Below are positions 19,823 through 51,931 of a DNA stretch of 64,000 bases, one piece after another. Every line of letters starts with the position of its first letter. The first letter of the stretch is position 1. A model generated the notes under the pieces. It saw only the letters and a program-made list of their open reading frames with translations. It was not told the DNA's origin and ran no database searches. A program made the translations under genes and the position numbers. This stretch comes from an uncultured Methanomassiliicoccales archaeon (GTDB lineage Archaea; Thermoplasmatota; Thermoplasmata; Methanomassiliicoccales; CAZOLG01), in assembly GCA_964580935.1 (NCBI GenBank), contig CAZOLG010000005.1, positions 10,988 to 74,987 of the forward strand. Reading direction: 5' to 3'.

Positions 19823-22108
19823 TCATTCTCCCAATTCGATCTCAGTGAGGTTCGTTCCAGGCTGCTCGGATTCGGGGGTCGCTACTCTCTTGTATATGAG
19901 CACCGGACACCTGACTCCCTTGGTTATTCTGTCCTGCATGGGGCCGAGAACGAATTTATCCCATCTCCTGGCACCACTCACACCCAGGGCCAGTAGATCC
20001 GTATCCGTCGAGTAAGAGATCGCCCCGTCCACTATGGATTTGGACCTCACCTCCCTGGTGATGACCGGAACATCGTATGACTTCACTATCGATTCTAACC
20101 TCTGAGAATACTCTCTAGCACGGTCGAAGTGGTCCTCTTTTACTATCACGTTCATGATGGTGATCCTGCCTCCGCTGGAAAGGGCTATTTCGCTTGCCAC
20201 TTCAGTGGCCTTGCTCACATGCCACATGCCTCCGGAAAGGATGGTAATGCTCTCTGGAGAGAGACGTCCTTCTGACTTCAATACTATGACGTCACAGGGT
20301 GCCTTTCTTAATATTTCGTCCATCTTCCTGCCCAAGACGTCCTTCTTGCTCTCGGCGTAACCTTTCCATCCCAGAAGGATCATGTTTACACCCTCGTCCT
20401 TCGCTGTATCCACAATCGCCCTCGCAATGTCGTGAGAGACGGACACTAACGCCCTGGTCTTTATGCCCTTGAGGTCGGCCTGAAGCTTGACCTTCTCCAG
20501 CATCCTCTTCTTCTGTTGAATGAGGTCTTTATCTACAGCATCCAGGGGGGCGGAAGTGGGCACCTCAATGACCGTGTGGAGAAGCAGTTCTCCGTCACGG
20601 TTATTCGCGATGATCGCCCCCAGGTCCTGTAGTGACCTGATGTTGCTGGGATCATCGATAGGTATCATTACCCTGTACCTCTCCTTGGTCTCCTCGTCCA
20701 TGGGCTCCCTCTCCGGGAGTTCGATCCTTTCGATCTCCTCCCTAGCACCGCTGAAGTAGTGAATGACCAGTCCCACGTATATCGCGCCTATGGCCACGTA
20801 CCAGGACAGAGGTTCGATATCGAAGATGGCTATGGCTAGAAACAGCTGGGTGATGATGCCTGCAATCGGTATCCAGGGGAAGAACGGCGTTACGAACTCC
20901 CGGTTAGCATCTGGCCTCAGTTTCCTCATATTGATGGCCGCCCAGTTGACCAGCACGAAGAGTAGAAGGATGAGAATGTCAGCTACCATGGCCACCTGCT
21001 CGATGGGCATGAATACGGACATTATGACTATGATCACACCACTGAAAATGATGGCCGTAGAAGGGGTCATATTCCTGGGGTGGAGTTTCCCGAAGCTCTC
21101 CGGAAGAGTACCGTCCCTTCCCATAGCGAAGGAGACGCGGGAGGTGGAAAATACCACCGAATTGATGGCCGCGAGTGAGCCGATGATTACGCCGATGGCG
21201 ATCAGGCCTGGGCCCATTATGGGCACCACCTGTTCGGATGTCCTGGCAAGGGCCTCCGTACCCCAATCGGCCACCGAAGGCCAGCCGGAGACCGCGATAG
21301 TGAGAGCGGTGATGATCACGAAGATCACGGCACTGATGAAAATGCAGAGGAACATCGCTTTAGGAACCACCTTTTCCGCGTTCTTCGCCTCTTCACCGGT
21401 CTGGGCAACGATCTCGTACCCCTCGAATATCATGAACGTGAAACCCATGGCACCGGCGAGGCTCATCAGCCCGAACGGCATGAATGGTTCAAAGGACTGG
21501 GGAGCGGGGCCAGTGGTGAGGATGCTGTGAAGGGCGAACAGGATGTATAGCACTACCATTCCCACCAGAACGAAGGACACATATACTTGGGAACGTCCAG
21601 TTCCCCTCACACCTCTGTAGTTCAGCCAGCTGAATACTGCTGCGATGACCACCGCAAAGATCTTGATGAGCATATCGGCCCCGATGCCGGGCACAGTGAT
21701 GTTGTACTGTGCCATCAGCCAGGTGATGCCTTCACCGAAACCCAGCACGTACACCGCACAGGCTATACAGTGGCCCACCCAGGACATCCACCCTCCCAGA
21801 AATCCCAGTGGTGGGAACAATCCTTCTCTGACCCATAAGTAGCCTCCACCGGTCTCGGGAAAGGCACTGCTCAACTCCATGTATGATAAAGCGGTCAACG
21901 TCGTTACCAGGAAATTCAGTATCAAGACCAGGATCAGGGCGGGACCCGCGATGCCCACGCCCAGTCCTACCAGAAGGAAGATTGTGGAACCGATGTTAGG
22001 TCCCAGACCTATCATCAAGACCTCCCAGAGGCCCAAATCCCTTTGTAGAGATACTTCGACTTCTTCAGTACCTCCAATAGCTTCCTGTATTTCCTCCATA
22101 ATGGCCAA
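19823..22108 (-). CDS. APC-family amino-acid permease fused to tandem C-terminal universal stress protein (Usp) domains
   Basis: 761 aa. The N-terminal ~450 aa are polytopic and APC-like. The C-terminal ~290 aa have two Usp-like repeats (RVMIPIDDP... and ILSGGMWH...). Confidence 0.82.
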   Translation of the reverse strand: MAIMEEIQEAIGGTEEVEVSLQRDLGLWEVLMIGLGPNIGSTIFLLVGLGVGIAGPALILVLILNFLVTTLTALSYMELSSAFPETGGGYLWVREGLFPPLGFLGGWMSWVGHCIACAVYVLGFGEGITWLMAQYNITVPGIGADMLIKIFAVVIAAVFSWLNYRGVRGTGRSQVYVSFVLVGMVVLYILFALHSILTTGPAPQSFEPFMPFGLMSLAGAMGFTFMIFEGYEIVAQTGEEAKNAEKVVPKAMFLCIFISAVIFVIITALTIAVSGWPSVADWGTEALARTSEQVVPIMGPGLIAIGVIIGSLAAINSVVFSTSRVSFAMGRDGTLPESFGKLHPRNMTPSTAIIFSGVIIVIMSVFMPIEQVAMVADILILLLFVLVNWAAINMRKLRPDANREFVTPFFPWIPIAGIITQLFLAIAIFDIEPLSWYVAIGAIYVGLVIHYFSGAREEIERIELPEREPMDEETKERYRVMIPIDDPSNIRSLQDLGAIIANNRDGELLLHTVIEVPTSAPLDAVDKDLIQQKKRMLEKVKLQADLKGIKTRALVSVSHDIARAIVDTAKDEGVNMILLGWKGYAESKKDVLGRKMDEILRKAPCDVIVLKSEGRLSPESITILSGGMWHVSKATEVASEIALSSGGRITIMNVIVKEDHFDRAREYSQRLESIVKSYDVPVITREVRSKSIVDGAISYSTDTDLLALGVSGARRWDKFVLGPMQDRITKGVRCPVLIYKRVATPESEQPGTNLTEIELGE

Positions 22109-22420
22109 CCCGAGTTAATAATTACACAGATATTAGTGTTTTCATATGGAAATAGTATGATCTCAATTGCAGAACATCGATGTTTTCATTCCCAGAACAC
22201 TTCACCCGTTCGAATTTTATCTGTCAGAGTGCAAGAAAATGGTTCTCGATTCGAGATTGATCGGAGTATCCATCGTGCACAGCCTTACTGCAGACGGGCT
22301 TAGGTCCAGGAATATCGCCGACCGCTCAAATTATAATAGATAAGGTTTATTTGCGTTCATTCTATATAGTGTTGGCATACAGTCCAGATGGTATGCTTCT
22401 AGAATCTAGGAGGAGAACTC

Positions 22421-23974
22421 GTGGTAAACATAGAACGGGCTTTGATTAGTGTATCGAACAAAGAAGGGATAGTCGATTTCGGCAGGGGATTGAAAGAACT
22501 CGGAGTAAAGATTATCTCCACCGGCGGCACAGCTGCCCTTCTTAACGAGAACGGTGTGAAGACCGTCGGAATCTCAGAAGTGACAGGCTTTCCAGAAATG
22601 CTAGATGGTAGAGTGAAGACCCTGCACCCCAAGGTGCATGCCGGTCTATTGGCGAGAAGAGATATTCCCGAGCATATGGAGCAGCTGGAAGACCTTGATA
22701 TCAGGAAGATCGACATGGTGGTCTGCAACCTGTATCCTTTCAGAGAGACGGTGATGAAGGAGGACTCAACCTTCGAGGACATCATCGAGAATATCGATAT
22801 CGGGGGACCCACCATGATCAGGTCGGCGGCCAAGAACTTCAGGTCCGTGGCCGTGGTGACTTCTCCGGAGAGATACGAGGAGCTGTTGGAGGAGATGAAG
22901 AGTTCTGGCGGCTCTCTGAGCGAGGAGACCATGAATACGTTGTTGCTCGAGGCGTTCAGAACCACTGCCCACTACGACGCAATGATCTCTTCCTACCTTC
23001 AGAACAACCTCTCAAACGAACTGTTTCCGTCCACGCTATCAATCGGCCTGGAGAAGGTGCAGGAACTGCGATACGGGGAGAACCCGGATCAGCAGGCCGC
23101 CTTCTATTCAGATCCTTTCTGTACCGGCACATGTGTGGCCAAGAGTGAGAAACTGCATGGTAAGGAGCTCTCATACAACAACATACTGGACCTGGATGCG
23201 GCGATGGAGATCGTGAGGGAGTTCGACAGGCCCACCGCGGTGGTGATGAAACACACCAACCCCTGTGGTATAGCCAGTTCTGAGACTATCAGCGAGGCTT
23301 TCCGTGTCGCTCACGCTGTGGACCCCATGTCCGCTTTCGGTTGTGTGGTCAGCCTCAACAGGAGGGTCGACCTGGCCACTGCCGAAGAGATCTCGAAGCA
23401 CTTCGTAGAGGCTGTGATCGCACCTGATCTCTCTTCTGAAGCCTTCAACCTGCTCACCCAGAAGAAGAATATCAGATTGCTTCAAACCAACCAGCCCATC
23501 ACCAGGGAAGAAGATCCTGGGAAGAGCATGAAGAGCATCAAGGGAGGGATGCTCACCCAGACCAAATCGTATGTGGACCTGACTCCCGAGGATCTGAAAG
23601 TGGTCACCGACAGAGAGCCCACTGAGGACGAACTGGAGGCCCTATTGTTCGGATGGAAGGCGGTCAAACATGTGTGGTCCAATGCCATTGTTCTTTCCAA
23701 GAAAGACAGGCTGGTGGGCATAGGCGCTGGCCAGATGAGCAGAGTGGATGCTTCGATGATCGCTGCCCATAAGGCCGAGGACAGGGCCCAGGGTAGCGTA
23801 ATGGCCTCCGACGCTTTCTTCCCCTTCCGAGACGGGGTGGATGAGGCGGCCAAAGTGGGCGTGACTGCCATCATACAGCCCGGAGGTTCTATCAGGGACG
23901 AGGAGGTCATCCAGGCGGCCAACGAGCACGGTATGGCCATGGTGTTCACCGGCAACAGGGTATTTAGGCATTGA
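22421..23974 (+). CDS. purH: Bifunctional AICAR transformylase / IMP cyclohydrolase PurH
   Basis: 517 aa. It shows RALISVSNKEG...ISTGGTA, GRVKTLHP and a full-length PurH architecture. GTG start behind GGAGGAG. Confidence 0.92.
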   Translation: MVNIERALISVSNKEGIVDFGRGLKELGVKIISTGGTAALLNENGVKTVGISEVTGFPEMLDGRVKTLHPKVHAGLLARRDIPEHMEQLEDLDIRKIDMVVCNLYPFRETVMKEDSTFEDIIENIDIGGPTMIRSAAKNFRSVAVVTSPERYEELLEEMKSSGGSLSEETMNTLLLEAFRTTAHYDAMISSYLQNNLSNELFPSTLSIGLEKVQELRYGENPDQQAAFYSDPFCTGTCVAKSEKLHGKELSYNNILDLDAAMEIVREFDRPTAVVMKHTNPCGIASSETISEAFRVAHAVDPMSAFGCVVSLNRRVDLATAEEISKHFVEAVIAPDLSSEAFNLLTQKKNIRLLQTNQPITREEDPGKSMKSIKGGMLTQTKSYVDLTPEDLKVVTDREPTEDELEALLFGWKAVKHVWSNAIVLSKKDRLVGIGAGQMSRVDASMIAAHKAEDRAQGSVMASDAFFPFRDGVDEAAKVGVTAIIQPGGSIRDEEVIQAANEHGMAMVFTGNRVFRH

Positions 23975-25607: not shown

Positions 25608-25796
25608 GTGATGACCATGCCGGCGAGAATTGAGAAGAGCTGCGAGGGTTGTGGTGTTTGCATTCCTTCATGCCCAGAAGATATAATCAAGGAGGAGGAG
25701 GGCAGGATCATCATTCAAGAAGCATTCTGTAGGTCCTGTGGCCTGTGTGTTGATTCATGCCCCGTCGGCGCCATCTCTATCCGGGAAGAGGGTTAA
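25608..25796 (+). CDS. 2x[4Fe-4S] ferredoxin
   Basis: 62 aa with two CxxCxxCxxxCP motifs (CEGCGVCIPSCP and CRSCGLCVDSCP). Confidence 0.8.
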   Translation: MMTMPARIEKSCEGCGVCIPSCPEDIIKEEEGRIIIQEAFCRSCGLCVDSCPVGAISIREEG

Positions 25797-25822
25797 GTAG
25801 ACATAAGGAGGTTCATAAATCG

Positions 25823-27778
25823 ATGACCTATTCAGTCAACTTCTTTCCTAAAAATATCACAGTCAAAGTTAAGGAGGGCACCGATCTTCTGGAGGCGGCC
25901 TATCAGGCAGGCATTGAGATTGAGAGTATTTGTGGCGGAGAGGGGACCTGTGGAAAGTGCAAAGTGGTGGTAGAGGGAGAGGTAGAGTCTCCCCCCACAG
26001 GGAAGATCTCTGAGGAAGAGAGAGAAAAGGGGTACAGGCTGGCATGTCAGACGCTGGTCAGAGGGGACGTCAACGTCCTGGTGCCCATCGAAGCGCAGGT
26101 GGCCGATCATAAGATCCTTACCAGCGCTTACCTGGCCGAATTGGAAGAGATCACGCCCCTGGTCAATTCCACATATCTCTCTCTTCCCGAACCCACGCTG
26201 GAGGACAACGTGGGAGATTTGGACCGTGTGGTCCGGGGCCTTGGTTTTGAGGACGGAGAGGTCACGGCCCCGTTGGACCTTCTGAAGAAGATGCCTTCCA
26301 CTCTGAGGGGGAACGATTGGGAAGTGACCGCGTTCTTGGAGGAGTATGAGGGGGAGAAGAAACTGATCAACCTATGTGGTGGTGACCACACCTCCAGAGA
26401 GTACGGGATTGCCGTCGACATAGGCACCACCACGGTGGTTCTCTCCCTGACCGACCTTCAGACAGGTGAGGTGATCGCCCAGGCTTCAGACTACAACAAA
26501 CAGATCCTGTGCGGTGAAGATGTACTTACCCGGATAGCTTACACGGAAGAGGAGGGTGTATCAAGACCGAACAGGCTGGTTCTGGACACGATCAACTTCC
26601 TCATTTCTCAGGTGGCAAGTGAGGTCCGGGACTGTGAAGAGGTAGAGGGGGAGATCGGGACCTGGGAGATCAACAGCATGACCGTGGCTGGGAATACCAC
26701 GATGATACACCTGTTTCTGGGACTCGACCCCCGGTACATAAGATATGAACCTTACATCCCCACCGTCAACGTACCGCCTATATTCAGGGCAGGAGAGTTA
26801 AACTTGCACATCAATCCCCAGGCCCCGGTATTCATACTGCCGGGAAGGGCCGGTTACGTGGGCGGGGATATAACCGCTGGTGTTCTGGCCACTGAACTGT
26901 ACAAGAAGTCTGAACTCTCCCTGCTCATAGATGTGGGCACCAACGGCGAAGTGGTGCTGGGCAATGAGGACTGGATGGTTGCCTGTTCCTGCAGCGCGGG
27001 CCCGGCCTTCGAGGGGGGGGAAGTAAGATACGGCATGAGGGCCATGGCGGGCGCCATAGACTCAGTGAAGATCAGCGAGGATTTCGAGGTGGAGTACACC
27101 ACCATACAGCAGGAGAAGCCCAGAGGGATCTGCGGATCAGGAATGATCGATCTTCTGGCAGATATGCTCGTTCAGGGGATTATCAACAAGAAGGGGCAGA
27201 TACAGGATGTTGCCACCGACCGGGTAAGGGAAAGAAACGATACCAAAGAATTTGTAATCGCCTGGGGACACGAGACAAGTCTGGGGGAGGACAGAATAGC
27301 CCAGATGGACGGAGAGGGAGAGATCGTGGCTGAAGAGAGCGAGGGGATAGATATCGTCATCACTGAGAACGATATAGCCAATGTGGTCAGAACCAAGGGG
27401 GCCGTCTACGCCGCCTGCAGGGTGCTGTTGAACTCCGTCGATCTCAGGTTCGAAGACCTGGATCACATCTACATCGCAGGAGGATTCGGGAACTACCTGG
27501 ACCTGGACAAAGCGATAGTCCTGGGACTCCTGCCCGACATACCCAAAGATAAGTTCACCTTCATTGGCAACGGGTCCCTGGCCGGGGCGAGACTGGCTCT
27601 ATTGTCCGAGAGAATGAGAGAGGATACGAAGGAGATCTTCAAGAAAATGACCTACTTCGAGCTCAGCACTACCAAGATGTTCTTCGATGAGTTTTCGTCT
27701 TCTCTTTTCCTACCTCATACAGAGATCAGTCAATTTCCGACCGTGGGCGCTATTCTCGACGAGAAGGAGAATCCCTAA
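25823..27778 (+). CDS. Reductive activator of corrinoid proteins (RACo/AcsV-like): [2Fe-2S] ferredoxin domain plus ASKHA ATPase
   Basis: Start ATG 25823 lies behind AAGGAGG. The N-terminus has CGGEGTCGKCKV, followed by ASKHA-like blocks (GIAVDIGTTT, DVGTNGE). About 650 aa. Confidence 0.82.
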   Translation: MTYSVNFFPKNITVKVKEGTDLLEAAYQAGIEIESICGGEGTCGKCKVVVEGEVESPPTGKISEEEREKGYRLACQTLVRGDVNVLVPIEAQVADHKILTSAYLAELEEITPLVNSTYLSLPEPTLEDNVGDLDRVVRGLGFEDGEVTAPLDLLKKMPSTLRGNDWEVTAFLEEYEGEKKLINLCGGDHTSREYGIAVDIGTTTVVLSLTDLQTGEVIAQASDYNKQILCGEDVLTRIAYTEEEGVSRPNRLVLDTINFLISQVASEVRDCEEVEGEIGTWEINSMTVAGNTTMIHLFLGLDPRYIRYEPYIPTVNVPPIFRAGELNLHINPQAPVFILPGRAGYVGGDITAGVLATELYKKSELSLLIDVGTNGEVVLGNEDWMVACSCSAGPAFEGGEVRYGMRAMAGAIDSVKISEDFEVEYTTIQQEKPRGICGSGMIDLLADMLVQGIINKKGQIQDVATDRVRERNDTKEFVIAWGHETSLGEDRIAQMDGEGEIVAEESEGIDIVITENDIANVVRTKGAVYAACRVLLNSVDLRFEDLDHIYIAGGFGNYLDLDKAIVLGLLPDIPKDKFTFIGNGSLAGARLALLSERMREDTKEIFKKMTYFELSTTKMFFDEFSSSLFLPHTEISQFPTVGAILDEKENP

Positions 27779-27911
27779 ACGGTACCGTCTTCCCGCACAG
27801 GCATTTTTCTCTTCTGTAGTTGAACAGTCCCCGTGGCAACTTTTCCCCACACTCACAGACTTCGAGATAGTCTTGTTCGATGTACTTTTCACAGAACGGA
27901 CATTCCGACAT
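27750..27911 (-). CDS. Possible small Zn-ribbon protein (53 aa), not in the supplied track
   Basis: Hand translation gives MSECPFCEKYIEQDYLEVCECGEKLPRGLFNYRREKCLCGKTVPFRDSPSRRE. It has three Cys pairs. An AT-rich TATA-like element (TATATATAATTAAT, about 27946-27960) lies upstream, and GGTGA precedes the ATG. The ORF overlaps the RACo 3' end by 29 nt. Confidence 0.3.
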   Translation of the reverse strand: MSECPFCEKYIEQDYLEVCECGEKLPRGLFNYRREKCLCGKTVPFRDSPSRRE

Positions 27912-28047
27912 CTTGTCACCGCTACTGGTAAAATACTTCGTTGATATATATAATTAATGTTCGACAAATATCGATTATGAGCGGTGAGGGGGGAGAAAAA
28001 CACCCGACTCTGTACCCAAGAAATGTTTAATAGTGACCACCTGAATT

Positions 28048-29082
28048 GTGCCAGCCGTGAACTGGAACTGCCTGCCCACCTGCATCGGGTCGCTGCCCTT
28101 CACTGATGAGAAAGAGGCCGTAGACCTGGTGCTGGCCCAACTTTCATCGATACCTTTCTGGCCTCAGCTGCCGAAGAAGGGGTTCAGGGAGAACATGTAT
28201 GCACAGTATGCCTACCACCTGCCGGGGATCGACCTGGATCATGAGGGGCAGAAGATCACTATCAATGCCGATGATTCCCAGCTTGAGAGTTTCTACTTGG
28301 AAGTGCTGGCGGAGAACATGGAACATTTCGATTACCCTGAGGACTTCTTCAGCGGGTTTCATGAGTTCATGGGCCGGGACTTGCCGGAGGACATCTGCGC
28401 GGTAAAGGGCCAGATCACGGGGCCGGTAAGCGAGGGGCTCCAGATCCTGGACCAGGGAGGGAAGCCTGTTCTATACGACGATACATACAACGAAGTGGTG
28501 CGGAAGAACCTGAACATGATGGCTCGCTGGCAGGAGGAGAGGCTGAAGGAAAAACTGGACCGTACCATCGTATTCATTGACGAACCTTATCTGTCCCTGA
28601 TGGGAACGCCCTTTGCCAGCATACCTGAACAGGCAGCCATCTCGTGGATGAACGATGTAATGGACGGCCTCGAGGGACTGGTCGGTGCACACTGCTGCGG
28701 TAATACCGACTGGCCCACGGTGATGGCCACCGGTATTGACATACTGTCATTCGACGCCTACGAATACGGGCACACGATTGCACTATACGCGGAAGAGGTG
28801 AGCGAATTCCTGGACCGCGGAGGTGCCCTGGCCTGGGGTTTCATCCCCAACACAATAGACTCTCTGCAGGGGGAAAATGTTCAGTCTCTGGTGAAGGATG
28901 CAAGAGAGCATTTCAAATCATTAGCAGAGAAAGGGATAGACCTGGATCTGATCATCAAGAATTCACTGATCACACCCCAGTGCGGTCTAGCAGAGGTTGA
29001 AGAGGCAACCAGTGTTCGCATTTTAGAGATGTTGAATCAGGTATCGGAGAGGATCAGAACGGAGTACAGTTTGGAGGACTGA
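28048..29082 (+). CDS. MetE C-terminal-like ('core MetE'-type) Zn-dependent methyltransferase
   Basis: 344 aa. MetE-type Zn/thiol-activation motifs are present: GAHCCGNTDW (His-x-Cys) and TPQCGLAE (C-terminal Cys). There is no N-terminal folate-binding barrel. The stop lies 2 nt before the cooC ATG, with GGAGGA inside its 3' end. Confidence 0.68.
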   Translation: MPAVNWNCLPTCIGSLPFTDEKEAVDLVLAQLSSIPFWPQLPKKGFRENMYAQYAYHLPGIDLDHEGQKITINADDSQLESFYLEVLAENMEHFDYPEDFFSGFHEFMGRDLPEDICAVKGQITGPVSEGLQILDQGGKPVLYDDTYNEVVRKNLNMMARWQEERLKEKLDRTIVFIDEPYLSLMGTPFASIPEQAAISWMNDVMDGLEGLVGAHCCGNTDWPTVMATGIDILSFDAYEYGHTIALYAEEVSEFLDRGGALAWGFIPNTIDSLQGENVQSLVKDAREHFKSLAEKGIDLDLIIKNSLITPQCGLAEVEEATSVRILEMLNQVSERIRTEYSLED

Positions 29083-29084
29083 CT

Positions 29085-29846
29085 ATGAGTTATACGATTG
29101 CAGTTGCAGGCAAAGGTGGTGTGGGTAAATCCACCATCTCGTCTATACTAGTGAGAACGATAGTCCAGAAGGTCGATGATATAATACTCGCCGTTGATGC
29201 CGACCCTAACGCCAACCTGGGAGAGAAACTGGGAGTTCCAGTAGAGAAGACCATCGGAGACCTTAGAGAGGACCTTCTCAATGAGGCGGAGGAGATACCG
29301 GCGGGTACCAGCAAGCAGGAATATGTGAGATACCAGCTGCGGTTGGCGATGTCGGAGGGAGAGATGTTCGATCTGCTCACCATGGGCCGACCAGAGGGGC
29401 CCGGATGCTACTGTTACATCAACAACATACTCAGAACATATCTGGACGGCATGATGGAGGAGTACCCCTACGTGGTCATCGACAACGAAGCGGGGATGGA
29501 GCATCTGTCCAGGAGGACTACCAAGAGGATGGATCTCCTGGCAGTGGTCACTGACGCCACCAAGGTGGGAGTGGAGACGGCAACAAGAATTGCAGAACTG
29601 GCAGAGGAGATGGAATTGAATGTCACCAACAGGGTCCTGCTGGTGAACCGGGTTCAGAACGACCTACATCCCGTGGTGAAGGAGGTCATCTCCAATTCAG
29701 GATTTGAAAACGTAATAAAGGTGCCCTTTGACAAACAGGTCGATGAGCTGACCATCGCGGGCAGACCCTTGACTGCGTTGGACAGAACCAGTTCGGCGGC
29801 GAGGACCATAAAGGACCTGGTGCAGCAGATCAGAGAGTGGAATTGA
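29085..29846 (+). CDS. cooC: CooC/AcsF-family Ni-insertion ATPase (copy 1)
   Basis: 253 aa. It has the deviant Walker A GKGGVGKST and the CxC Ni motif (GPGCYCYIN). Confidence 0.9.
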   Translation: MSYTIAVAGKGGVGKSTISSILVRTIVQKVDDIILAVDADPNANLGEKLGVPVEKTIGDLREDLLNEAEEIPAGTSKQEYVRYQLRLAMSEGEMFDLLTMGRPEGPGCYCYINNILRTYLDGMMEEYPYVVIDNEAGMEHLSRRTTKRMDLLAVVTDATKVGVETATRIAELAEEMELNVTNRVLLVNRVQNDLHPVVKEVISNSGFENVIKVPFDKQVDELTIAGRPLTALDRTSSAARTIKDLVQQIREWN

Positions 29847-29896: not shown

Positions 29897-31234
29897 TCAG
29901 TCCATTGACTTCAACAGCTTGGGGATCCCGCTCGACTCCTGCGGACCCACAATCACATCCAGTCCTGTGAGCTCCTCGAGCTTTCCGCTCATCCTGGAGA
30001 CCATACCCGGGATTATGATTTCTCCTCTCTTGGAATTCTCCTGGGCATCCGAATCTTCCAAGGCCTTGGCCACCAATTCAGGTGTCAGCTTTCCGGCCGC
30101 AAAAGCGGTCATCACAGACAGCCCTTCAGTGTCCACCACTTGAAGCCACACCGGCTTCTTGCTCTTCTCCACGTCCCCAATCACGGTGAAGTATGTCAGG
30201 GAGAAGTTGGTGGTGAATACTATCGGCGAATCCTCGTCGGGATCGTTCACCGCATACAATTTAGGCTCCACCTGGATCGGTACCTGCGGGTCTGTGTATA
30301 TGTTCTGACGCAACACGAACAGGGGCAGGGCGTGTTCTACCTTCAGCTCGTCAAAGGCCACCACGCTGCCGTACTTCATGGTGGCCACGATGCCCTTGAG
30401 TACCGACTTATCGCCGTCCAGTGCGTTGACGAAAATCGGGTATCCCAATCCCCTGAACGTCTTGTTGATGGAGATTCTCCTGACAATGGTGCTCTTCTCC
30501 AGTAGTTCCTTTAGATCGCTTGAACCGAAGTCGATGACTATTTTCTCCACTCCTGCCTTTTTCACCTTGTCCACCAGATCGGCCAGTTCGTCGAGGCTGC
30601 CGTCTTCAAATACCACCAGTGGGCAGTCCAGCTCGTCGGCAACCGATGCCATCTGGTCCGCGTTGTCAACGGTGGCCGCATGAAGGAGTGGTTTCTTATC
30701 AGCGATCCGCGAAGCTGCGGCCTTTATAGACTCAGGGTCTTTGGAAAACAGGATCAGAGGCAGTTCCGTACCGTTGGCCACTTTTTCCACGACCTCAGCG
30801 AATGCATCAGCATCCCCCGAATCGTCCCTGACCCCGACCATGTCCATCTTTATTATCTGGCCCACACGCTCGAACTGTAGCCCGTTCGCTTTGTTCACCT
30901 TGGCTTCTATCTCCTCATCAGAGGCCTTGTCGGAAACGGTGAGAGCGAAGGCTACAGGGTGGAAGAACTTCTTTTCGTGCCTGTACAACTCCGTCTCATC
31001 TCCCATCTCGATCTGGTTCTCTCCAGTCCCCACTTTTACTAGCTTGATAGGCGGCGCAGACGAGGCTTCCAGTTCCGCCTTTGCATCATCAGAAACATTC
31101 GGGCAGTCCTCCAGTTCGACCTTCTGGTTGGCCAGCTGCATCGCAAAGGCCAGACAGGTGGGGAACCCGCAGTCGCCACAGTTGGTCTGGGGAAGTAATT
31201 TGAATATCTCCATAGCTGTAGGCATTTCAGTCAC
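29897..31234 (-). CDS. acsC: Corrinoid iron-sulfur protein large subunit (AcsC/CdhE)
   Basis: 445 aa. The N-terminal [4Fe-4S] motif is NCGDCGFPTCLAFAM...CP. It looks colinear with Moorella AcsC as I remember it (TNFSLTY, IVGPQESSGI). Confidence 0.9.
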   Translation of the reverse strand: MTEMPTAMEIFKLLPQTNCGDCGFPTCLAFAMQLANQKVELEDCPNVSDDAKAELEASSAPPIKLVKVGTGENQIEMGDETELYRHEKKFFHPVAFALTVSDKASDEEIEAKVNKANGLQFERVGQIIKMDMVGVRDDSGDADAFAEVVEKVANGTELPLILFSKDPESIKAAASRIADKKPLLHAATVDNADQMASVADELDCPLVVFEDGSLDELADLVDKVKKAGVEKIVIDFGSSDLKELLEKSTIVRRISINKTFRGLGYPIFVNALDGDKSVLKGIVATMKYGSVVAFDELKVEHALPLFVLRQNIYTDPQVPIQVEPKLYAVNDPDEDSPIVFTTNFSLTYFTVIGDVEKSKKPVWLQVVDTEGLSVMTAFAAGKLTPELVAKALEDSDAQENSKRGEIIIPGMVSRMSGKLEELTGLDVIVGPQESSGIPKLLKSMD

Positions 31235-32177
31235 CTCCTCTCAGGTCGTCCACCGCTTCATTGATTATCTTCATTGCCCCAGGGCTGCGCACAATAAGCA
31301 TATCCGCCCCGGACATGATGGCTGCTATACCGGTGGTCGCCTCCCACCAGTCGCCTCGCTCCTTCACGTCCCCCAACTCAGGGCTAGGATCTGTGGCTTC
31401 TCTTGCTCCCCATGCTGCCGAAGCGTCGCATATCATGGGGTTCTGCAGTATGTTGTCCCCCATCAGAGCCGCCAGGCGTATTCTCTCGTTGACCGAGTAA
31501 GAGTATTCTAGTCCCACCCCCAGAGCGGCCATCAACGGATCGGCTATGACGTCTTCGAGATCAACATCGAAGTCCGTGAGCAAGATATTGATCTGCTTGG
31601 CCAGGTTGATATCAAGGTTTGAGAATCCGATGAGGACATGGTCATTAGACATCGCGGCCGCCGATATGGACTTATAGGCGTCCTCCTCGGCATGGCCCAG
31701 TACCAGACGTTCATCGGGGGCCGCGTTGCTCACCGCCTCCATCGTCTTGGCGTCCGTGTCCTCGTGACCGCATCCGTAAACGATGAGGGGCAGCTTTACA
31801 GTGTCCAATACCTCCTTCACCGTCTCGGCTGCCTCTTCTGGAGAACGGTCCTCTTCTTCAGGGTTGGTGGACAGGAACCTGAGGCATATCGCATCCGCCC
31901 CGAATTCCTCCCACTTCTTCGCCCATTGGGCGGGGTCGTCCACCGCATCGCCAAATACCTCCCTGACCACATCTGGGAAATCCTTGAGTTTATCCAAGAC
32001 CTCTCCAGCAATAGCCGGTCGATGAGGCGATTCGTTCTCGAAGGATAGGAAGGGTAGACCGGTCTGTCCACCGATTGTCACTGTGTTCCTTGAACCTCCC
32101 TCTTCCTCCCCCTTTCCTAGTGTCACTTCTCTAATCTTACCGCTCCATTCTTCTTTTGGCAAAGGTACTTCAGTCAT
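31227..32177 (-). CDS. acsD: Corrinoid iron-sulfur protein small subunit (AcsD/CdhD)
   Basis: 316 aa, a TIM-barrel AcsD-like protein. It overlaps acsC by 8 nt and lies directly downstream of the CODH/ACS gene. Confidence 0.88.
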   Translation of the reverse strand: MTEVPLPKEEWSGKIREVTLGKGEEEGGSRNTVTIGGQTGLPFLSFENESPHRPAIAGEVLDKLKDFPDVVREVFGDAVDDPAQWAKKWEEFGADAICLRFLSTNPEEEDRSPEEAAETVKEVLDTVKLPLIVYGCGHEDTDAKTMEAVSNAAPDERLVLGHAEEDAYKSISAAAMSNDHVLIGFSNLDINLAKQINILLTDFDVDLEDVIADPLMAALGVGLEYSYSVNERIRLAALMGDNILQNPMICDASAAWGAREATDPSPELGDVKERGDWWEATTGIAAIMSGADMLIVRSPGAMKIINEAVDDLRGGD

Positions 32178-32199: not shown

Positions 32200-35100
32200 T
32201 CAACTTATCAATGGGGGCATATCCAGGGCGGGATGGTCCACCTTCTGCATCCACTCGGTAAGACCCTGCGCGTCGGTGCAGATCGTCTCATCCGCTATCT
32301 TCTCCACGAAGTCTGGTTTTCCAAGTTCCTCGGCCCTCTCCTTCAGATCGTCCATCAGTGCTTCCTTCAACGACTTGGGCATCCAGGCAATACGGAAAAA
32401 GCCGCCGTCCGCGGGGATGAACTTCTCGCTGATCAGGTATTTCCTACCCACACCTATGAATCCCGGAGTCTGTTTTCCACCGCCGACAGAACCGGCCAGT
32501 GTGGAGAACTTCATTCCCAAAGGAGTTATTCCCGGGTACTCACGGTTGACCACCACCACTCCCTGCATGTCTGTGGTCATACCCACGATGCATTCGAAAC
32601 ACCCGCAGGAAGTCATCGGGTCCTCCATCATTGTGTAGGCATTGAACTTCTTCAGCTTGTGATGGCTGTATTCATAGACGGCCTCGTTAACTCCTTTCCA
32701 CTGGCCCTTCTCTGCGTCAATGACCTCTCCTTTCTCTATTGGCTGGTTGGGTCCGGTAGGGGTGATCTCTTTGCTTGCCCTGGCATCGAGCCAGTTGATC
32801 GCACCGCACAGGCCCAGTCTCTGGGGAGTGATCACGCATACGTGGTCGGGGGCGAACGACTGACAGAGAGTGCAGGAATAGAAGATATCCACCGCCTCGT
32901 CGGTGAGGTCAGCGATCCGCTCGTCCCTCTTCTCGTAGGCCTCCTTGGCCTCGGGTATGTAGTCCTGCATCGCCTCTTCGTCGGTGAGCACCGTTACCTG
33001 AACCCTGCTTATGATGTTCCCGAACTCTTCCTTCAACTTTGTTATTAGTATGTCTCCGATGTGTTTGAACCGGAGCCCAGCGTTGACCGAACTCTTGCTC
33101 AACCGGATCCACAGAATGTCCCTCTGTCCGGTGTGCCATCCTCCCTCAGCGAAGTTAATGAACTGGTGTATCCTCCTTTCGAGCACGGACTCGAAGTCTT
33201 CTTCCATCTTCTTACCGTACACTTCGACCACGATGCCGAGGGGGCTCTTTCCGCCCTCTTCCATCTCATCAACGTCCTTTCCGATGAGGGTGATCTTTCC
33301 ATCTTCCACCTCGTCCTCGTCCCTCATCTTGAGGATCTCGAAAGCGGTGGTCTTGGCCGCTCCGCCAGCTTCGATGTACGTCTGCGGCCTCCTGACCGTC
33401 TCCCCCTCAAAAGCGGGACCATAGGCCACAGGTATGTCGACGGGTTCCAGCTTGACCTGTATGTCTCTGACCTCGATGGCGGTCTGGATCATCTTCTCGT
33501 AGTCCTTCTGCACCACGTACTTATCAGGTATCTCCTCCACCTCCTGGTCAGTGATGGTCGGAGAGCCGTTGAACATTACCGCGAACTCGGCCGCGGCCTT
33601 GATATGGTCGATGGGGCCCATCTGAAGCACGAAGACCTTGGGCCTCTTGGAGAGGTACTTGTACAGTGACTCCCTGTCTCCTCTTTCAACCCCTCCGAAT
33701 GAGAGTGCTGCCCTTATTGCGAAGTTCAGTCCGTGTATGGCCTGAGTGAACTCTCCCACAGGGTAAAGCATGATGTCCAAGCCCATCTGTATGCCCTCGT
33801 CCTGCAGTTGCCTGATGACATCGAATGTGGCTATGATCAGCATACCCTTGCTCTGACAGTCACGGACCACCTTGGCCAGTTTTTCAGGGTCTTCTGCGGT
33901 CCCCACGAGGACCGCTGCTCCCGGTATTGTGTCGTCCACGAAGTCGATCCCCAGTTCCCTGAGCACCATGTCGGGAACGAATCCGCAGTACGGTGTATCC
34001 TCGTAGGGGTCGTCCGTCTCCACGTACTTCAGTGCCTCTACGATCTCCGCGGAGATCATAGTGGCCTCTCCCGCGATAAGAGCGTTCTCGTAGGTGGACT
34101 CCTCCCGGATCTTGTTCCGGACCTTGCCCAGTATCGTGGGCAGGTCGCCGAGTTTCTTCACCTCGGCACCGTCCCAGGCGAAAATGGAGGGCAGCTCATA
34201 CCCAGTATCCGGGTATTCCACCGGCTCCTGGTACCCGTATCGATCGATGGCCACTCCCAGCAGCTGATCAGCGTACCCAGTAGCGATAATCGCTCCCTCG
34301 ATGGCCATCTCGTAAAGCCTCTCCTGACTGATGGGTTCACCCTCCTCTCTCACGTAAGTATTATCCAGTCGCAGTACCCATCTCCTGTACTCCAGCGTGT
34401 TAAGGATCTTGTCCGCGGCCTTCATGGGGTCCTTCTCGAAGATGAAGTACCCGCCGTAGACGTCCCTGGCCGTGTTCTCCAGTACCTCGGTCACCAGGGA
34501 TGAACCGTAGATGTAGTTGATTGTGCCTACATGGGTGGGCATCCCCATGGCCACACACCAGGCACCGATGGTCACCGCTTTTTCGTGGTTAGCTTCCGGT
34601 GCTGAGGCCACGAACGGTATCTCGTCCACATCGGTATCGAACCTCTCTGCTATGGCAGTGGCGAAATTGGCCGCCCTGCTGTTGTCCACGCAGGAGCCCA
34701 TGTGCCATATGGGTGGCAGGTCGACCCCGTTCTCCCCCTTCAGCCCGCTGATGAATTTGTTAAGGCCTTCTCCGGCGTACTCCTCCAGTGCCTCCGAGGA
34801 CATCAGACCTTCCTTGGCCAGTGCGGCGGCCGAACAGCCAGTGGTCACGATCAGCACGTCATTGGCTATCAACTCCTTGGCTATGGTCACGTGGTTGTAA
34901 TCCTGAACCGCATTCTGGTTGTTACAGCCGGCCATCAGTGCCACGCCCCTGATGGTGCCGTCTTTGATGTTATCTATGATGTGCATCAACGGATCAGATT
35001 CGTTGTAAGGGGAGCAGAGTTCCTCGATCTGCTCGAGGCTGAACCCGGCAATCACCTCGTTCTTGATGTCAGGGATGAAAATATTCTCGTTGTCTTCCCT

Positions 35101-36279
35101 CTGAGTATAGGCCTCTATCGCCAGCCTTATGATGGCCCTGGCGCTCTCTTCAGCGTCCTCCTCCCTAAACTGTATATGTGTATCATTGGGAAGTCGCACG
35201 TTAGGCATGGTGGTGGTCATCTTGGTGGGAAGACAGGAACACAACTGGGCCATGGAGGGAACGATACACTGATAGTCAGCCACCACCAGGTCCACAGCGC
35301 CCGTAGAAAGCACCAACTCCTGGGAGGAGAAGTTAGCGGCCATCGGGACCCCCTTTCGCATCAGAGTCTCGTTCCCGGTACAGCATATACCTATGATATT
35401 GATTCCCTCAGCACCAGCATCCTTGGCCTCATCCTCCATCTCTTTGGCCACGTCCACCACCACATCACTGAGCACTGGGTTGTGGCCGTGAACGGCTATA
35501 TTGACCATGTCCTTGTTGATGGCCCCCAGATTGGCCATGGTTTTCACCAGTTTCGGGGTGCCGAACAGGATGTCGGAGAGGTCCGTTGAGATCTGCTCAC
35601 CGGTGAGATCCGCGACGGCGGCATTTATTCCGGCGAACAGGATGGGTACTGGATCGGCGTCACACCCAAGGGTGGTGCGATGCATGATATCCGAGATTGA
35701 CTGCTCAATATTATTGGGCATCACGCCCAGTCTTTTCCACAGGGCAATCCTGTCCTCTGTGATCGTAGAGGTGGCAAATCTGGTGGGCACTTCCTCATGC
35801 CGGTTGAAATCGTCCCAGACCACCTCCAGTATTTCTTCCATCACATCGTGTTCTTCGACACCCTCGGTCTCAATACCCAGACGGCCGGCAACTCTCTCCA
35901 GCTTCTCCTTATCCTTAATACTGTAAGCGGGAGCTTTTCCCTCTAGGACCTTGTGAACCGTCTCTGCCAGGTGTCTTCCGTGACCGGAGTGGGCAGCCGC
36001 CCCTCCAGCGATATTCCTTATCAGATTTCGGGCCACTATGGTGTAGGCTCTCGCACCGCAGATCCCCTTGTCCGGTTTGCCTCCGAAGGGGTTGATCCGA
36101 CAGGGGCCCTGGAGGCAGTTCCTGCAACATATACCGAGCTCTCCGAAGCCGCACTGGGGCTGCATGGCTTCGAACCGGTCCCACATCGTCTCTATATTCT
36201 TGTCAGCAGCAACGGGCAGACACTGCATTACGGCCTCATCGCAACTTCTCCCTAGATCTATCTTATCTTTAGACTCCAT
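32200..36279 (-). CDS. acsAB: Single-polypeptide fusion of CooS/AcsA-type Ni-CO dehydrogenase (aa 1 to ~636) and full-length AcsB acetyl-CoA synthase (aa ~650 to 1359)
   Basis: One uninterrupted 1359-aa ORF. The N-terminal half carries CODH motifs: QPQCGFGELGICCRNCLQGPCRI, HGHNP, ICCTGNE, GCNN, MGSCVDNSR. The C-terminal half carries AcsB motifs: ATGYADQLL, YPDTGYELP, the A-cluster ligands SCTLCQSFAPDHVC, LCGA and TSCGCFE, and IAWMPKSLK. The junction is ...LEYRRWVLRLDNTYVREEGEPISQERLYEM... (about nt 34324-34371). Confidence 0.9.
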   Translation of the reverse strand: MESKDKIDLGRSCDEAVMQCLPVAADKNIETMWDRFEAMQPQCGFGELGICCRNCLQGPCRINPFGGKPDKGICGARAYTIVARNLIRNIAGGAAAHSGHGRHLAETVHKVLEGKAPAYSIKDKEKLERVAGRLGIETEGVEEHDVMEEILEVVWDDFNRHEEVPTRFATSTITEDRIALWKRLGVMPNNIEQSISDIMHRTTLGCDADPVPILFAGINAAVADLTGEQISTDLSDILFGTPKLVKTMANLGAINKDMVNIAVHGHNPVLSDVVVDVAKEMEDEAKDAGAEGINIIGICCTGNETLMRKGVPMAANFSSQELVLSTGAVDLVVADYQCIVPSMAQLCSCLPTKMTTTMPNVRLPNDTHIQFREEDAEESARAIIRLAIEAYTQREDNENIFIPDIKNEVIAGFSLEQIEELCSPYNESDPLMHIIDNIKDGTIRGVALMAGCNNQNAVQDYNHVTIAKELIANDVLIVTTGCSAAALAKEGLMSSEALEEYAGEGLNKFISGLKGENGVDLPPIWHMGSCVDNSRAANFATAIAERFDTDVDEIPFVASAPEANHEKAVTIGAWCVAMGMPTHVGTINYIYGSSLVTEVLENTARDVYGGYFIFEKDPMKAADKILNTLEYRRWVLRLDNTYVREEGEPISQERLYEMAIEGAIIATGYADQLLGVAIDRYGYQEPVEYPDTGYELPSIFAWDGAEVKKLGDLPTILGKVRNKIREESTYENALIAGEATMISAEIVEALKYVETDDPYEDTPYCGFVPDMVLRELGIDFVDDTIPGAAVLVGTAEDPEKLAKVVRDCQSKGMLIIATFDVIRQLQDEGIQMGLDIMLYPVGEFTQAIHGLNFAIRAALSFGGVERGDRESLYKYLSKRPKVFVLQMGPIDHIKAAAEFAVMFNGSPTITDQEVEEIPDKYVVQKDYEKMIQTAIEVRDIQVKLEPVDIPVAYGPAFEGETVRRPQTYIEAGGAAKTTAFEILKMRDEDEVEDGKITLIGKDVDEMEEGGKSPLGIVVEVYGKKMEEDFESVLERRIHQFINFAEGGWHTGQRDILWIRLSKSSVNAGLRFKHIGDILITKLKEEFGNIISRVQVTVLTDEEAMQDYIPEAKEAYEKRDERIADLTDEAVDIFYSCTLCQSFAPDHVCVITPQRLGLCGAINWLDARASKEITPTGPNQPIEKGEVIDAEKGQWKGVNEAVYEYSHHKLKKFNAYTMMEDPMTSCGCFECIVGMTTDMQGVVVVNREYPGITPLGMKFSTLAGSVGGGKQTPGFIGVGRKYLISEKFIPADGGFFRIAWMPKSLKEALMDDLKERAEELGKPDFVEKIADETICTDAQGLTEWMQKVDHPALDMPPLIS

Positions 36280-36857: not shown

Positions 36858-37790
36858 TCAGAACTCGATATCATTTAGGGCCACCAGGCTGTACTCTCTC
36901 CTCATGTCGGAGAGGAACTCTTCGATGTTCTTCCTCAGATCATCTTTCCCTATGGGACAGCTACTGACATCGGCTATGAGATCCAGGGTCATCTTCTCGT
37001 AGTAAGAGAGTACCTTTGTGTAAACACTCAATAGATTGATGTCGTATTTCGCCAGGTACTCGGTCACCTGCTGTATGGCCCCCGGCCTGTCGGGTATGGT
37101 GAAGTCAATTTCCATCAACTGTATACCCGGTTTGAGCAGGGTGATAGAGAGTACCCAGGAATCGGTATCGCCGACCAGCATCACGGGATGGTTCTCCTCG
37201 ACACTCTCGAACAGTTCCAGGTACTCCTGGGGCACCTCGAATTCGCCGTTCTTGATCTCGGAAGAGCTCCGGTGCCTCCTCTTGACCACCTTGGTCTGCA
37301 CTGAGGACACAGACGGGGCCACGCCCTTGGTGTATCGATCGGAGATGTTCGATGGTTTGATCTCCAGTGCGTCCACCTTGTTAAGGGAGGGGTCGTTCTT
37401 CCCCTTCATAGTATTGAACTCATCCAGTAGTTCTTCATGGTCGCCATAGTAGCTCAGATCGACCAGCATCTTCCATACCATGCATACATCGGAGATCATA
37501 CTCAGAGAGACCGAATTCAAGATGTCTATATTCCTGTCGCCCATGAACTTGGCTATCTGAGCACATGCTCCTGGGATATCCACCATGTAGAAGGTGGCCG
37601 AGCATATCCTCCTGTAGTTCTCAGGTCCGAAGGTGGAGAGCACTATCTCATAGCTCCTAGAGCCGTTGTAATCGTACCTGAACATGGTGCTGAATACCTG
37701 GCTCCCGTCGGACAGGCCGAGTGGTTTACCTACCCTATCGCTCACCTTGACCTTACCGTCCTTCAACCTCGCGAAATCCCACAGTCTCAT
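36858..37790 (-). CDS. Uncharacterised protein with two ACT domains and a possible N-terminal AbrB/SpoVT-like domain
   Basis: 310 aa. The ACT-like segments are FYMVDIPGACAQIAKFMGDRNIDILNS and FTIPDRPGAIQQVTEYLAKYDINLLSV. The N-terminal GKVKVSDRVGKPLGLSDGSQV resembles a swapped-hairpin DNA-binding motif; this match is weak. Confidence 0.55.
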   Translation of the reverse strand: MRLWDFARLKDGKVKVSDRVGKPLGLSDGSQVFSTMFRYDYNGSRSYEIVLSTFGPENYRRICSATFYMVDIPGACAQIAKFMGDRNIDILNSVSLSMISDVCMVWKMLVDLSYYGDHEELLDEFNTMKGKNDPSLNKVDALEIKPSNISDRYTKGVAPSVSSVQTKVVKRRHRSSSEIKNGEFEVPQEYLELFESVEENHPVMLVGDTDSWVLSITLLKPGIQLMEIDFTIPDRPGAIQQVTEYLAKYDINLLSVYTKVLSYYEKMTLDLIADVSSCPIGKDDLRKNIEEFLSDMRREYSLVALNDIEF

Positions 37791-38139: not shown

Positions 38140-38943
38140 CTATTCAGAAAGCCTTGTCTCCAGAGTCTCCTTGACGGTTCTCACTGCTTCCACCACATCT
38201 TCGATACCGTCCACGTCCATCGGGGAGCGACCTGCCAGGTCAGCTTCCATCATCTTCTGATTGAACGGTATGGTGGATATCAGCTCTATGCCCAGCTCGT
38301 CCAGTCTCTCTTTTATCACCCTTTCATCCTCTTCAGAAAAGGCCTTGTTCAGGACGGCCACCACCCTGGGTATCCCGATGTCTGTGGCCAACTTCTTGAT
38401 CTTGGAGGCGGTCTCTACGGACCTCATTCCCGGTTCAACCACGATGATCATGACGTCCATGTTTTTTGAAGAAGCTCTCCCCAGATGCTCCAGGCCGGCC
38501 TCCATATCCATGATCAGGTACTGGTCCTCCTCCAGAACAAGGTATTTTAGCAGGTTCTTCAGCAGGGCGCTTTCAGGACAGAAACATCCTCCTCCACCGG
38601 ACCTGATAGTCCCCAGAATGAGAAGCCTCACGTTGTCCTTGGCCCCCACCGCGTACCTCTCCGCCAGATCGTCCACCTTGGGGTTCAACTTGAACATCCC
38701 GCCGTAACCGGATCCGGGCCTGGAACCGGTCCGCTCCTCGATCAGGTCCAGCATCTGCGAGAGGGGTACCACTCCCTCCAGCTCTTCCTCGGGAACGCCC
38801 ACGACACTGGCCAGATTTGAAGCGGGATCAGCGTCCAGAACCAGGGTGTCTTTGCCCTCCCTCCCGAACAGTCTGGAGAGGATTCCTCCCAATGTGGTCT
38901 TTCCTACCCCGCCTTTACCTGATATGGCGATTTTCAATGCCAT
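38140..38943 (-). CDS. cooC: CooC/AcsF-family Ni-insertion ATPase (copy 2)
   Basis: 267 aa with GKGGVGKTT and the CxC motif (GGGCFCPES). It abuts cooT with no spacer. Confidence 0.9.
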   Translation of the reverse strand: MALKIAISGKGGVGKTTLGGILSRLFGREGKDTLVLDADPASNLASVVGVPEEELEGVVPLSQMLDLIEERTGSRPGSGYGGMFKLNPKVDDLAERYAVGAKDNVRLLILGTIRSGGGGCFCPESALLKNLLKYLVLEEDQYLIMDMEAGLEHLGRASSKNMDVMIIVVEPGMRSVETASKIKKLATDIGIPRVVAVLNKAFSEEDERVIKERLDELGIELISTIPFNQKMMEADLAGRSPMDVDGIEDVVEAVRTVKETLETRLSE

Positions 38944-47121: not shown

Positions 47122-47240
47122 ACCCTAGCAGATAATCAGACGGCAAACCGAGATATCACGCGCCATCAATTTTCAAAGTACATGCCTTGCGAGGTCTATC
47201 GGACATCTAATCCCGTAGTGCCCAAGATACATTCCCCCTC

Positions 47241-47831: not shown

Positions 47832-47963
47832 TGTGTGTTCTATTAGATTATGGAATATAAGAAAATATTCCAACATTGAACTGACCGCTTCAAGATCTTG
47901 TGAGCCTATCGTAGTCAAAGGAAGCCTTACTAAGACTCTCCAATATCAACGGCAAGTCAATAA

Positions 47964-51921: not shown

Positions 51922-51931
51922 GGTGAGAAAA

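Follow-up and report, generated by a model that had tools for sequence, protein, structure and literature searches.

The mesB locus

We analysed a 64,000-nucleotide (nt) stretch of DNA from an uncultured archaeon of the order Methanomassiliicoccales (GenBank assembly GCA_964580935.1, contig CAZOLG010000005.1, forward-strand positions 10,988–74,987). We refer to this whole 64-kb stretch as the window, and coordinates are those of the window unless a related locus is named. It contains a gene, here called mesB, for a putative zinc-dependent methyltransferase that lies inside a cluster of acs genes. The genes that matter to its interpretation are the following.

25757..27778, + strand: RACo (AcsV), which reductively activates corrinoid proteins at the expense of ATP; 2Fe-2S ferredoxin domain at the N terminus
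28048..29082, + strand: mesB, MesB-type core methionine synthase of 344 amino acids (aa), as assigned from its open reading frame (ORF), motifs, family alignment, AlphaFold2 (AF2) model and ligand numbering
29085..29846, + strand: cooC-type P-loop ATPase, Ni-insertion accessory protein for carbon monoxide dehydrogenase (CODH) as well as acetyl-CoA synthase (ACS); Pfam CbiA/AAA_31
29897..31234, − strand: acsC, large subunit of the corrinoid iron-sulfur protein (CFeSP), binding the corrinoid and a 4Fe-4S cluster; NCBIfam NF003195, 558 bits; Pfam FeS and CdhD
31227..32177, − strand: acsD, small subunit of CFeSP; NCBIfam NF003376, 356 bits; Pfam CdhD
32200..36279, − strand: fused CODH (AcsA, aa 12–636) and ACS (AcsB, aa 653–1358), 1359 aa

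The mesB ORF is intact. It starts with GTG, ends with TGA (29080–29082) and encodes one domain only, a single MetE-like Zn barrel, with the motif HCCGN from residue 215 and QCGLAE from residue 311. The RACo assignment comes from the Pfam series Fer2, RACo_linker, Raco_middle and RACo_C_ter (8e-101) and from NCBIfam AcsV at 639 bits, and the CODH–ACS fusion from TIGR01702 (692 bits) and NF040764 (982 bits) on a single ORF. RACo, mesB and cooC run on the plus strand and are convergent with acsC, acsD and the fused CODH–ACS gene on the minus strand; the 50-nt gap that separates the convergent cooC and acsC stops contains oligo-T runs on both strands. A first-pass annotation, made from the letters of the DNA, had described a 344-aa ORF with these two motifs, the order RACo–mesB–cooC, a 2-nt spacing between the mesB stop and the cooC ATG, and convergence with acsC/acsD, and each of these observations is borne out.

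At the 3′ end of mesB, the TGA is followed by CT and then by the cooC ATG at 29085, and a Shine–Dalgarno-like GGAGGA lies within the final mesB codons. Since cooC is directly 3′ of mesB in 22 of 26 related loci, the tight junction is itself conserved. Translational coupling of the two genes is a candidate reading of just this spacing and its conservation.

Upstream of mesB is a gap of 269 nt. A TATA-like, AT-rich element (ATATATATAATTAA) is found at ~27945–27958, within 27940–28047 and ~90 nt 5′ of the mesB GTG, which suggests that mesB–cooC has an archaeal promoter of its own, distinct from that of RACo. We rejected a regulatory RNA in the gap because Rfam finds no family there; the sole Rfam match in the window is a tRNA. 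A 53-aa ORF (MSECPFCEKY...CECGEKLP...YRREKCLCGKTVPF) runs through the gap on the minus strand at 27750–27911 and shares 29 nt with the 3′ end of RACo. It is Cys-rich and zinc-ribbon-like and belongs to no Pfam family. By tblastn it recurs at the equivalent position in several related loci (numbered with the prefix L), namely L001/L005, L006 (two tandem copies), L011 and L021, at E-values of 2e-10 to 7e-7, and in L001 a 61-aa gene is called at that place.

Fold, catalytic residues and family membership

The mesB protein belongs to a large family, with 5,948 matching database proteins at E ≤ 1e-3 and the nearest of them at 61–82% identity, a degree of similarity that cannot be put down to chance. 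The nearest homologues from metagenome-assembled genomes of Methanomassiliicoccales share 50–61% identity, and Methanomassiliicoccus and Methanomassiliicoccaceae proteins 50–56%, among them a Methanomassiliicoccus sp. orthologue at 56% identity with an identical gene order.

General family models recognise the protein poorly. There is no Pfam match at E ≤ 0.01 and none to TIGR01371. The only NCBIfam match is to NF002119, a model of short archaeal methionine synthases that we take to represent the MesA type; at 33 bits (E 3.5e-8) it stays far below the cutoff of 258. Nor is the protein a canonical MetE, as it matches neither PF01717 nor Meth_synt_1 and has half the length of MetE. When the protein sequence and a profile of 56 family members were searched against PDB sequences, the profile found the one-domain structure 3rpd marginally (E=0.054), and all other matches were spurious, to designer PPR (pentatricopeptide) repeats. 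We therefore turned to structure prediction and Foldseek to assess kinship with MetE.

The AF2 model, computed from the 56-sequence alignment, is a single β/α barrel with high confidence (pLDDT, the predicted local distance difference test, 95.4; pTM, the predicted template-modelling score, 0.93). In a Foldseek search of the PDB, the top 23 matches are all cobalamin-independent methionine synthases (E 2.5e-9 to 5e-6; query-based TM-score, TMq, ~0.6). They include 3rpd, which has selenomethionine, 1xdj (Thermotoga maritima MetE with Zn and homocysteine), 3l7r and 4l6h. The one-barrel, MetE-like fold is thus settled at the level of the predicted structure, the resemblance in sequence being marginal. 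The N-terminal folate barrel that the first-pass annotation reported missing is indeed absent from the single-barrel model and from a chain of 344 aa. Its description of the protein as a core-MetE-like Zn/thiol methyltransferase holds for the fold and the residues, but sequence likeness to MetE is weak, and the comparison with family models that it called for gave MetE catalytic domains as the best match by structure but no Pfam, uroporphyrinogen decarboxylase (URO-D)/MtaA or MetE model match.

The residues expected of a zinc-dependent methionine synthase are in place. Across the 56 family members, which range down to 30% identity, the Zn ligands H215, C217, D236 and C312 never vary, and conservation of S15 and D178 reaches at least 90%, in archaeal and bacterial-type proteins alike.

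The prototype of such enzymes is the 343-aa core-MetE of Dehalococcoides mccartyi CBDB1 (cbdbA481 = DET0516, UniProt Q3Z939), characterised in Deobald 2020 (PMC7005905). The D. mccartyi enzyme methylates homocysteine from methylcob(III)alamin, not from methyl-tetrahydrofolate (methyl-THF), with a kcat of ~60 s-1 (PMC7005905), in agreement with what the first-pass annotation had stated for core-MetE. Its KM for free methylcobalamin is ~240 µM, which led the authors to propose that the real donor is a corrinoid protein, and specifically that CFeSP (CoFeSP in their usage) transfers the methyl group directly to core-MetE (PMC7005905). The Zn ligands are His215, Cys217, Asp236 and Cys312, the gene is located in a metK–ahcY–core-metE operon, and D. 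mccartyi lacks CODH; His122 was proposed as the lower cobalt ligand in Dehalococcoidia (PMC7005905). Price 2021 (PMC7857596) named the family MesB, assigned homocysteine binding to Ser15 and Asp177 of Q3Z939, and noted that Asp replaces MetE Glu665 as a zinc ligand. The same paper (S1 Table) gives MesB as the sole methionine synthase in Methanomassiliicoccus/Methanomassiliicoccales. It predicts transfer from CoFeSP to MesB generally and describes, for methanogens, apparent operons in which mesB accompanies acsC and acsD (PMC7857596).

The window protein closely resembles the D. mccartyi (CHARACTERISED) enzyme. The two are alike in size (344 versus 343 aa) and in having a single barrel without a folate-binding domain, their Zn-ligand numbering is identical, including the Asp for MetE Glu665, and S15/D178 correspond to the published Ser15/Asp177. 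The D. mccartyi genome also has acsCD, with CoFeSP as the predicted donor, and the window likewise encodes acsC and acsD. They differ in that the D. mccartyi gene stands in a metK/ahcY operon whereas the window gene is inside the acs cluster, and in that D. mccartyi has no CODH whereas the window host encodes CODH fused to ACS. Residue 122 is Gln in the window protein, not the His122 proposed for Dehalococcoidia; among the sampled family members with a [KR]G-x-x-x-GP motif, 236 of 266 likewise have Gln. With the Methanomassiliicoccus MesB of Price 2021, going by the text of that paper, the window gene has lineage, orthologous group and association with acsC/acsD in common. The bacterial-type members named in our profile search come from Actinomycetota, Bacillota, Omnitrophota, Deltaproteobacteria, Elusimicrobia, Aminicenantes and Ca. 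Jettenia, and Dehalococcoides is not among these named matches. The primer-encoded termini of cbdbA481 (MTKTDF.../...KHGTV) have no match in 289 proteins and 97 loci.

With canonical MetE the protein shares the catalytic barrel fold and, as its residues predict, homocysteine activation as a Zn-thiolate. Canonical MetE differs in having an N-terminal folate-binding barrel and a Glu as fourth ligand, where the window protein has no such barrel and an Asp, and characterised MesB, in contrast to MetE, does not use methyl-THF. The MesC type, represented by Methanosarcina MA_0053, was compared by residues only: Cys217 is present where most MesC proteins carry His, at the position of MetE Cys643.

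A different thiol could also be the acceptor. The MT2 methyltransferases (MtaA/MtbA/MtsA, URO-D fold) use zinc to methylate a thiol from a methylated corrinoid protein, and an enzyme of this kind would pass the CFeSP methyl group to a non-homocysteine thiol such as coenzyme M, and so into methanogenesis or the thiol pool. The related barrel and the H-x-C...C zinc motif of MtaA/MtbA fit this view, URO-D-fold proteins do appear lower in the Foldseek ranking (E 5e-6), and the nearest relatives of the protein belong to a methanogen order. Nonetheless, the URO-D/MtaA models (PF01208, TIGR01463) do not match the protein and PF01208 finds 1 of the 56 members at E=0.12, while the MtaA-like protein of the window at 50803–51921, our positive control, was readily detected. 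MetE structures outrank URO-D structures, archaeal and bacterial-type members alike keep the Ser and Asp that bind homocysteine through its amino-acid moiety, homologues outside the methanogens sit in mtnA–mtnP/ahcY/metK operons (see below), and MesB is the sole candidate methionine synthase that the text of Price 2021 (PMC7857596) reports for Methanomassiliicoccus. The protein is structurally nearer to MetE, and we regard an MT2-like function as highly improbable.

Because of the residue pattern, the orthology with Methanomassiliicoccus MesB and the poor fit to canonical MetE, NF002119, MT2 and AcsE, we assign the mesB product by sequence to the MesB family of core methionine synthases.

Gene order across relatives and the methyl donor

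We compared 97 loci: a metagenome scan supplied 80, and look-ups by exact protein or by genome the other 17. The window neighbours were mapped onto them by tblastn, and the counts below use loci with sufficient flank. Identity to the mesB protein splits the loci cleanly into 32 at 46–61% (the Methanomassiliicoccales type) and 65 at 38–44%. The archaeal loci conserve the gene order RACo–mesB–(cooC)–<acsC<acsD: acsC is convergent with mesB and at most 5 kb away in 19 of 20 loci, and RACo is upstream of mesB in 15 of 20.

The distant loci, which are mostly bacterial-type, have a different context that resembles the metK–ahcY–core-metE operon of D. mccartyi. In 21 of 42, the methylthioadenosine (MTA) phosphorylase gene mtnP (PNP_UDP_1) is the immediate same-strand neighbour upstream of mesB, and an MtnA-type isomerase (IF-2B) lies farther upstream in 13 of 27; downstream, S-adenosylhomocysteine (SAH) hydrolase is found in 13 loci and S-adenosylmethionine (SAM) synthetase, metK, in 10. 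Methionine formation as the function of the family gains independent support from these homologues, since they sit in methionine-salvage and SAM-cycle operons. Examples of mtnA–mtnP–mesB operons are L016 (6064–9032) and L039–L093 (e.g., L040 10001–16577 and L043 10001–15388), often with SAH hydrolase and SAM synthetase within ~5 kb, as a methionine-salvage/SAM-cycle supra-operon. In L037 (279–2100), a MesB homologue of 43% identity is followed directly by a cooC-like gene (50% identity to the window CooC), with no acs gene in the 6.5 kb downstream; this may be an intermediate arrangement.

Within the archaeal clade, we scored the architecture wherever sequence past acsD exists. The fused CODH–ACS form occurs in the window, L001, L004, L006, L013 and L021. 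ACS is present at the locus but CODH is not in 8–9 loci (L002/3, L012, L019, L023, L030, L031, L033, L035). Neither ACS nor cooC is found at the locus in L007, L010, L025 and probably L008, where acsD is followed directly by a conserved ACT-domain gene. These reduced loci have the order RACo–mesB–<acsC<acsD–<ACT gene.

L007: 7990–15178
L010: 7985–15193
L025: 3–4800
L008: probable member

The catalytic residues of MesB are intact in the reduced loci, absence of ACS and CODH here meaning absence from the syntenic position. As CODH, ACS and cooC are lost at these loci with mesB retained, the constant core of the cluster is RACo, mesB, acsC and acsD. The cooC gene is present exactly where ACS is present, and mesB is kept in both cases; we therefore take the tight mesB–cooC junction as operon layout. 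A functional MesB–CooC link was rejected, cooC being lost together with ACS while mesB stays.

The fold, the residues and the gene order lead us to the following proposal, which we consider likely overall: the gene encodes a MesB-type methionine synthase, and its donor is most likely the methylated CFeSP, AcsCD, encoded on the opposite strand. A Zn2+ ion on His215, Cys217, Asp236 and Cys312 would activate the thiol of homocysteine, which Ser15 and Asp178 would hold. The thiolate would attack the methyl-Co(III) corrinoid to give methionine and Co(I), and RACo would restore Co(I) whenever the corrinoid has been oxidised to Co(II). AcsCD could receive its methyl group from cleavage of acetyl-CoA by the adjacent CODH–ACS or from methyl-THF through an AcsE-type transferase; genes of the C1-THF pathway have been reported from Methanomassiliicoccales. 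On this view CFeSP would stand where acetyl-CoA metabolism and methionine synthesis diverge, and the fused CODH–ACS would be the second enzyme to take methyl groups from it or to supply them. The draining of CFeSP-CH3 to homocysteine, one of two directions put forward in the first-pass annotation, is thus the best-supported function, yet it had already been published (PMC7005905, PMC7857596).

On this proposal RACo, MesB and AcsCD would resemble a MetH split into separate proteins. The folate domain would have its counterpart in an AcsE-like transferase, the cobalamin domain in AcsCD, the homocysteine domain in MesB and the reactivation domain in RACo. The likeness is one of roles. MetH is one protein, whereas RACo, MesB and AcsCD are separate and non-homologous to it domain by domain, MesB being MetE-like with no homologue of the MetH homocysteine domain, and the reactivation of MetH depends on SAM, where RACo-type reactivation is, by analogy, driven by ATP and ferredoxin.

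The first-pass annotation also held that mesB occupies the AcsE position and might bypass AcsE. This is not supported. The mesB protein has no Pterin_bind (PF00809) match, and relatives L002/3, L005, L006, L012, L020 and L022 carry both mesB and, ~6–7 kb upstream, an AcsE-like Pterin_bind gene. The latter encodes 257–268 aa and lies beside purH, divergent from it, at these positions among others.

L002: AcsE-like gene, 126–932
L005: AcsE-like gene, 1414–2190
L006: AcsE-like gene, 2640–3407
L012: AcsE-like gene, 3347–4117

We thus reject replacement of AcsE, as the two proteins are non-homologous and these relatives carry both genes. In the window, a 761-aa protein that joins an amino-acid permease to Usp domains occupies the equivalent place (19823–22421); an AcsE-like gene may be located elsewhere in the source genome.

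The other direction suggested earlier was the reverse reaction, in which methionine or another methylated thiol is demethylated to load CFeSP and acetyl-CoA is synthesised without AcsE. Some corrinoid:thiol methyl transfers, for example those of the Mts enzymes, can run both ways, and no AcsE-like gene lies within the 64-kb window, as this idea would have it. Methyl transfer from methylcobalamin to the homocysteine thiolate is, however, strongly favourable by the established chemistry of MetH. Moreover, relatives with an equivalent cluster have the AcsE-like gene nearby, and the module persists where ACS is absent from the locus, so that there would be no acetyl-CoA synthesis to feed. The near invariance of Ser15 and Asp178, the methionine- and SAM-regenerating context of the distant family members, and the speed of the D. 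mccartyi enzyme toward methionine (PMC7005905) all argue against the reverse direction as well, and we see hardly any chance that it is the true one.

A third possibility keeps the enzyme and changes the donor: a real MesB might take its methyl group from an MtaC/MtmC-type corrinoid protein or from a free methylcobamide, its adjacency to acsCD being an accident of the operon. Many corrinoid proteins for methylotrophy are known from Methanomassiliicoccales, and Price 2021 (PMC7857596) raises the possibility that certain MesB paralogues have other corrinoid proteins as partners. Among the 65 distant loci not one has an acs gene within 10 kb of mesB, and bacterial-type homologues thus stand beside acs genes in 0 of 65, but in the Methanomassiliicoccales-type clade the acs linkage is kept over 46–61% identity (19 of 20 loci) and the RACo–mesB–acsCD set survives at loci from which CODH, ACS and cooC have gone. 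In addition, the KM of ~240 µM of the D. mccartyi enzyme for free methylcobalamin is implausibly high physiologically. We consider another donor unlikely. The co-localisation with acsCD in other genomes, a check named in the first-pass annotation, holds among close relatives but fails among distant ones.

Several points weigh against a MesB that is methylated by AcsCD. The linkage with acs genes is limited to the Methanomassiliicoccales-type clade, and the literature searched holds no biochemical proof of CFeSP-to-MesB transfer. By sequence, likeness to MetE is marginal, as seen from the E-value of 3rpd and from PF01717 (Meth_synt_2), which is found in just 7 of the 56 family members. The D. 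mccartyi enzyme was compared through its published residue numbers and length rather than through the rule of Price, at least 130 bits in phmmer against Q3Z939. Lastly, our data cover a 64-kb window, and a further methionine synthase or corrinoid partner may be encoded in the rest of the genome.

In favour of the AcsCD-dependent MesB, the link of a synthase, its presumed corrinoid donor and a reactivase across an archaeal order, even after loss of ACS and CODH, constitutes strong comparative support. Direct transfer from CFeSP to homocysteine would give anaerobes methionine without methyl-folate or MetH/MetE. The window gene is a clear example of an idea published in 2020–2021; it is neither a new enzyme nor a change of concept. 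The most useful lead is the set of ACS-less RACo–mesB–acsCD loci. We put forward, tentatively and as somewhat less than an even prospect, that the Methanomassiliicoccales lineage possesses a corrinoid-dependent methionine synthase complete in itself, made up of RACo, MesB and AcsCD and with no need of acetyl-CoA synthase. Methyl groups might reach such a module from methyl-THF via AcsE or through a methylotrophic methyltransferase. If this were true, the retained and possibly primary role of CFeSP in these archaea would be methionine synthesis, not acetyl-CoA metabolism. RACo, mesB, acsC and acsD make up a compact four-gene set for direct expression tests.

As to earlier descriptions, the text of Price 2021, taken as text only, makes no mention of the RACo–mesB pairing, the cooC junction or ACS-less variants, and the searched text of Methanomassiliicoccales genomics papers has nothing on the mesB gene or on how the acs cluster is arranged. 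Likewise without mention in the literature text are the stepwise disappearance of CODH, ACS and cooC around the constant core and the sharp split between archaeal and bacterial-type contexts. MesB-type proteins frequently carry the label 'hypothetical' or 'cobalamin-independent methionine synthase II' and go unrecognised by Pfam, and for this reason metabolic reconstructions may wrongly report methionine auxotrophy.

Other genes of the window

The ACT-domain gene that follows acsD in the reduced loci has its counterpart in the window at 36858–37790 (−). Its 310-aa product has an ACT domain at the C terminus, whereas the N-terminal ~180 aa have no domain assignment and no PDB sequence match. 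The gene is a conserved neighbour beyond the acs operon in many related loci, ACS-less ones included. It could be an amino-acid-sensing regulator of the acs cluster. A second CooC/CbiA-type P-loop ATPase (267 aa, 38140–38943, −) is encoded 1.9 kb past the CODH–ACS gene and may be a second Ni-insertion accessory protein, giving a CooC/AcsF pair.

Within 9388–12512 (−) we found an ADP-forming acetate–CoA ligase (707 aa; TIGR02717, 595 bits) adjoining a DRTGG/AAA_26 protein that is like the N-terminal part of phosphate acetyltransferase. This pair is consistent with acetate formation or activation tied to the acs cluster.

A three-gene set at 50803–53894 (+) encodes a URO-D/MtaA-like methyltransferase (PF01208, 95 bits), a redox protein of the DVU_1557 family (DUF7479) and a radical SAM protein that exceeds the cutoff of the NCBIfam TrsS '(seleno)protein' model (531 versus 490 bits). 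The set is unrelated to mesB and holds the only genuine MtaA-like gene of the window.

Genes for PAS-domain proteins and histidine kinases are unusually dense downstream of the acs region, with at least 5 ORFs at 39354–41132 and 44643–49310, one of them with a receiver domain. The tRNA lies between these two blocks at 43399–43504 (+); together with RadA and an archaeal-type phosphoenolpyruvate (PEP) carboxylase, both also encoded in the window, it identifies the host as archaeal. Because the Rfam call (47 bits) spans 106 nt, an intron is suggested; ARAGORN in its bacterial setting found no tRNA in the window.

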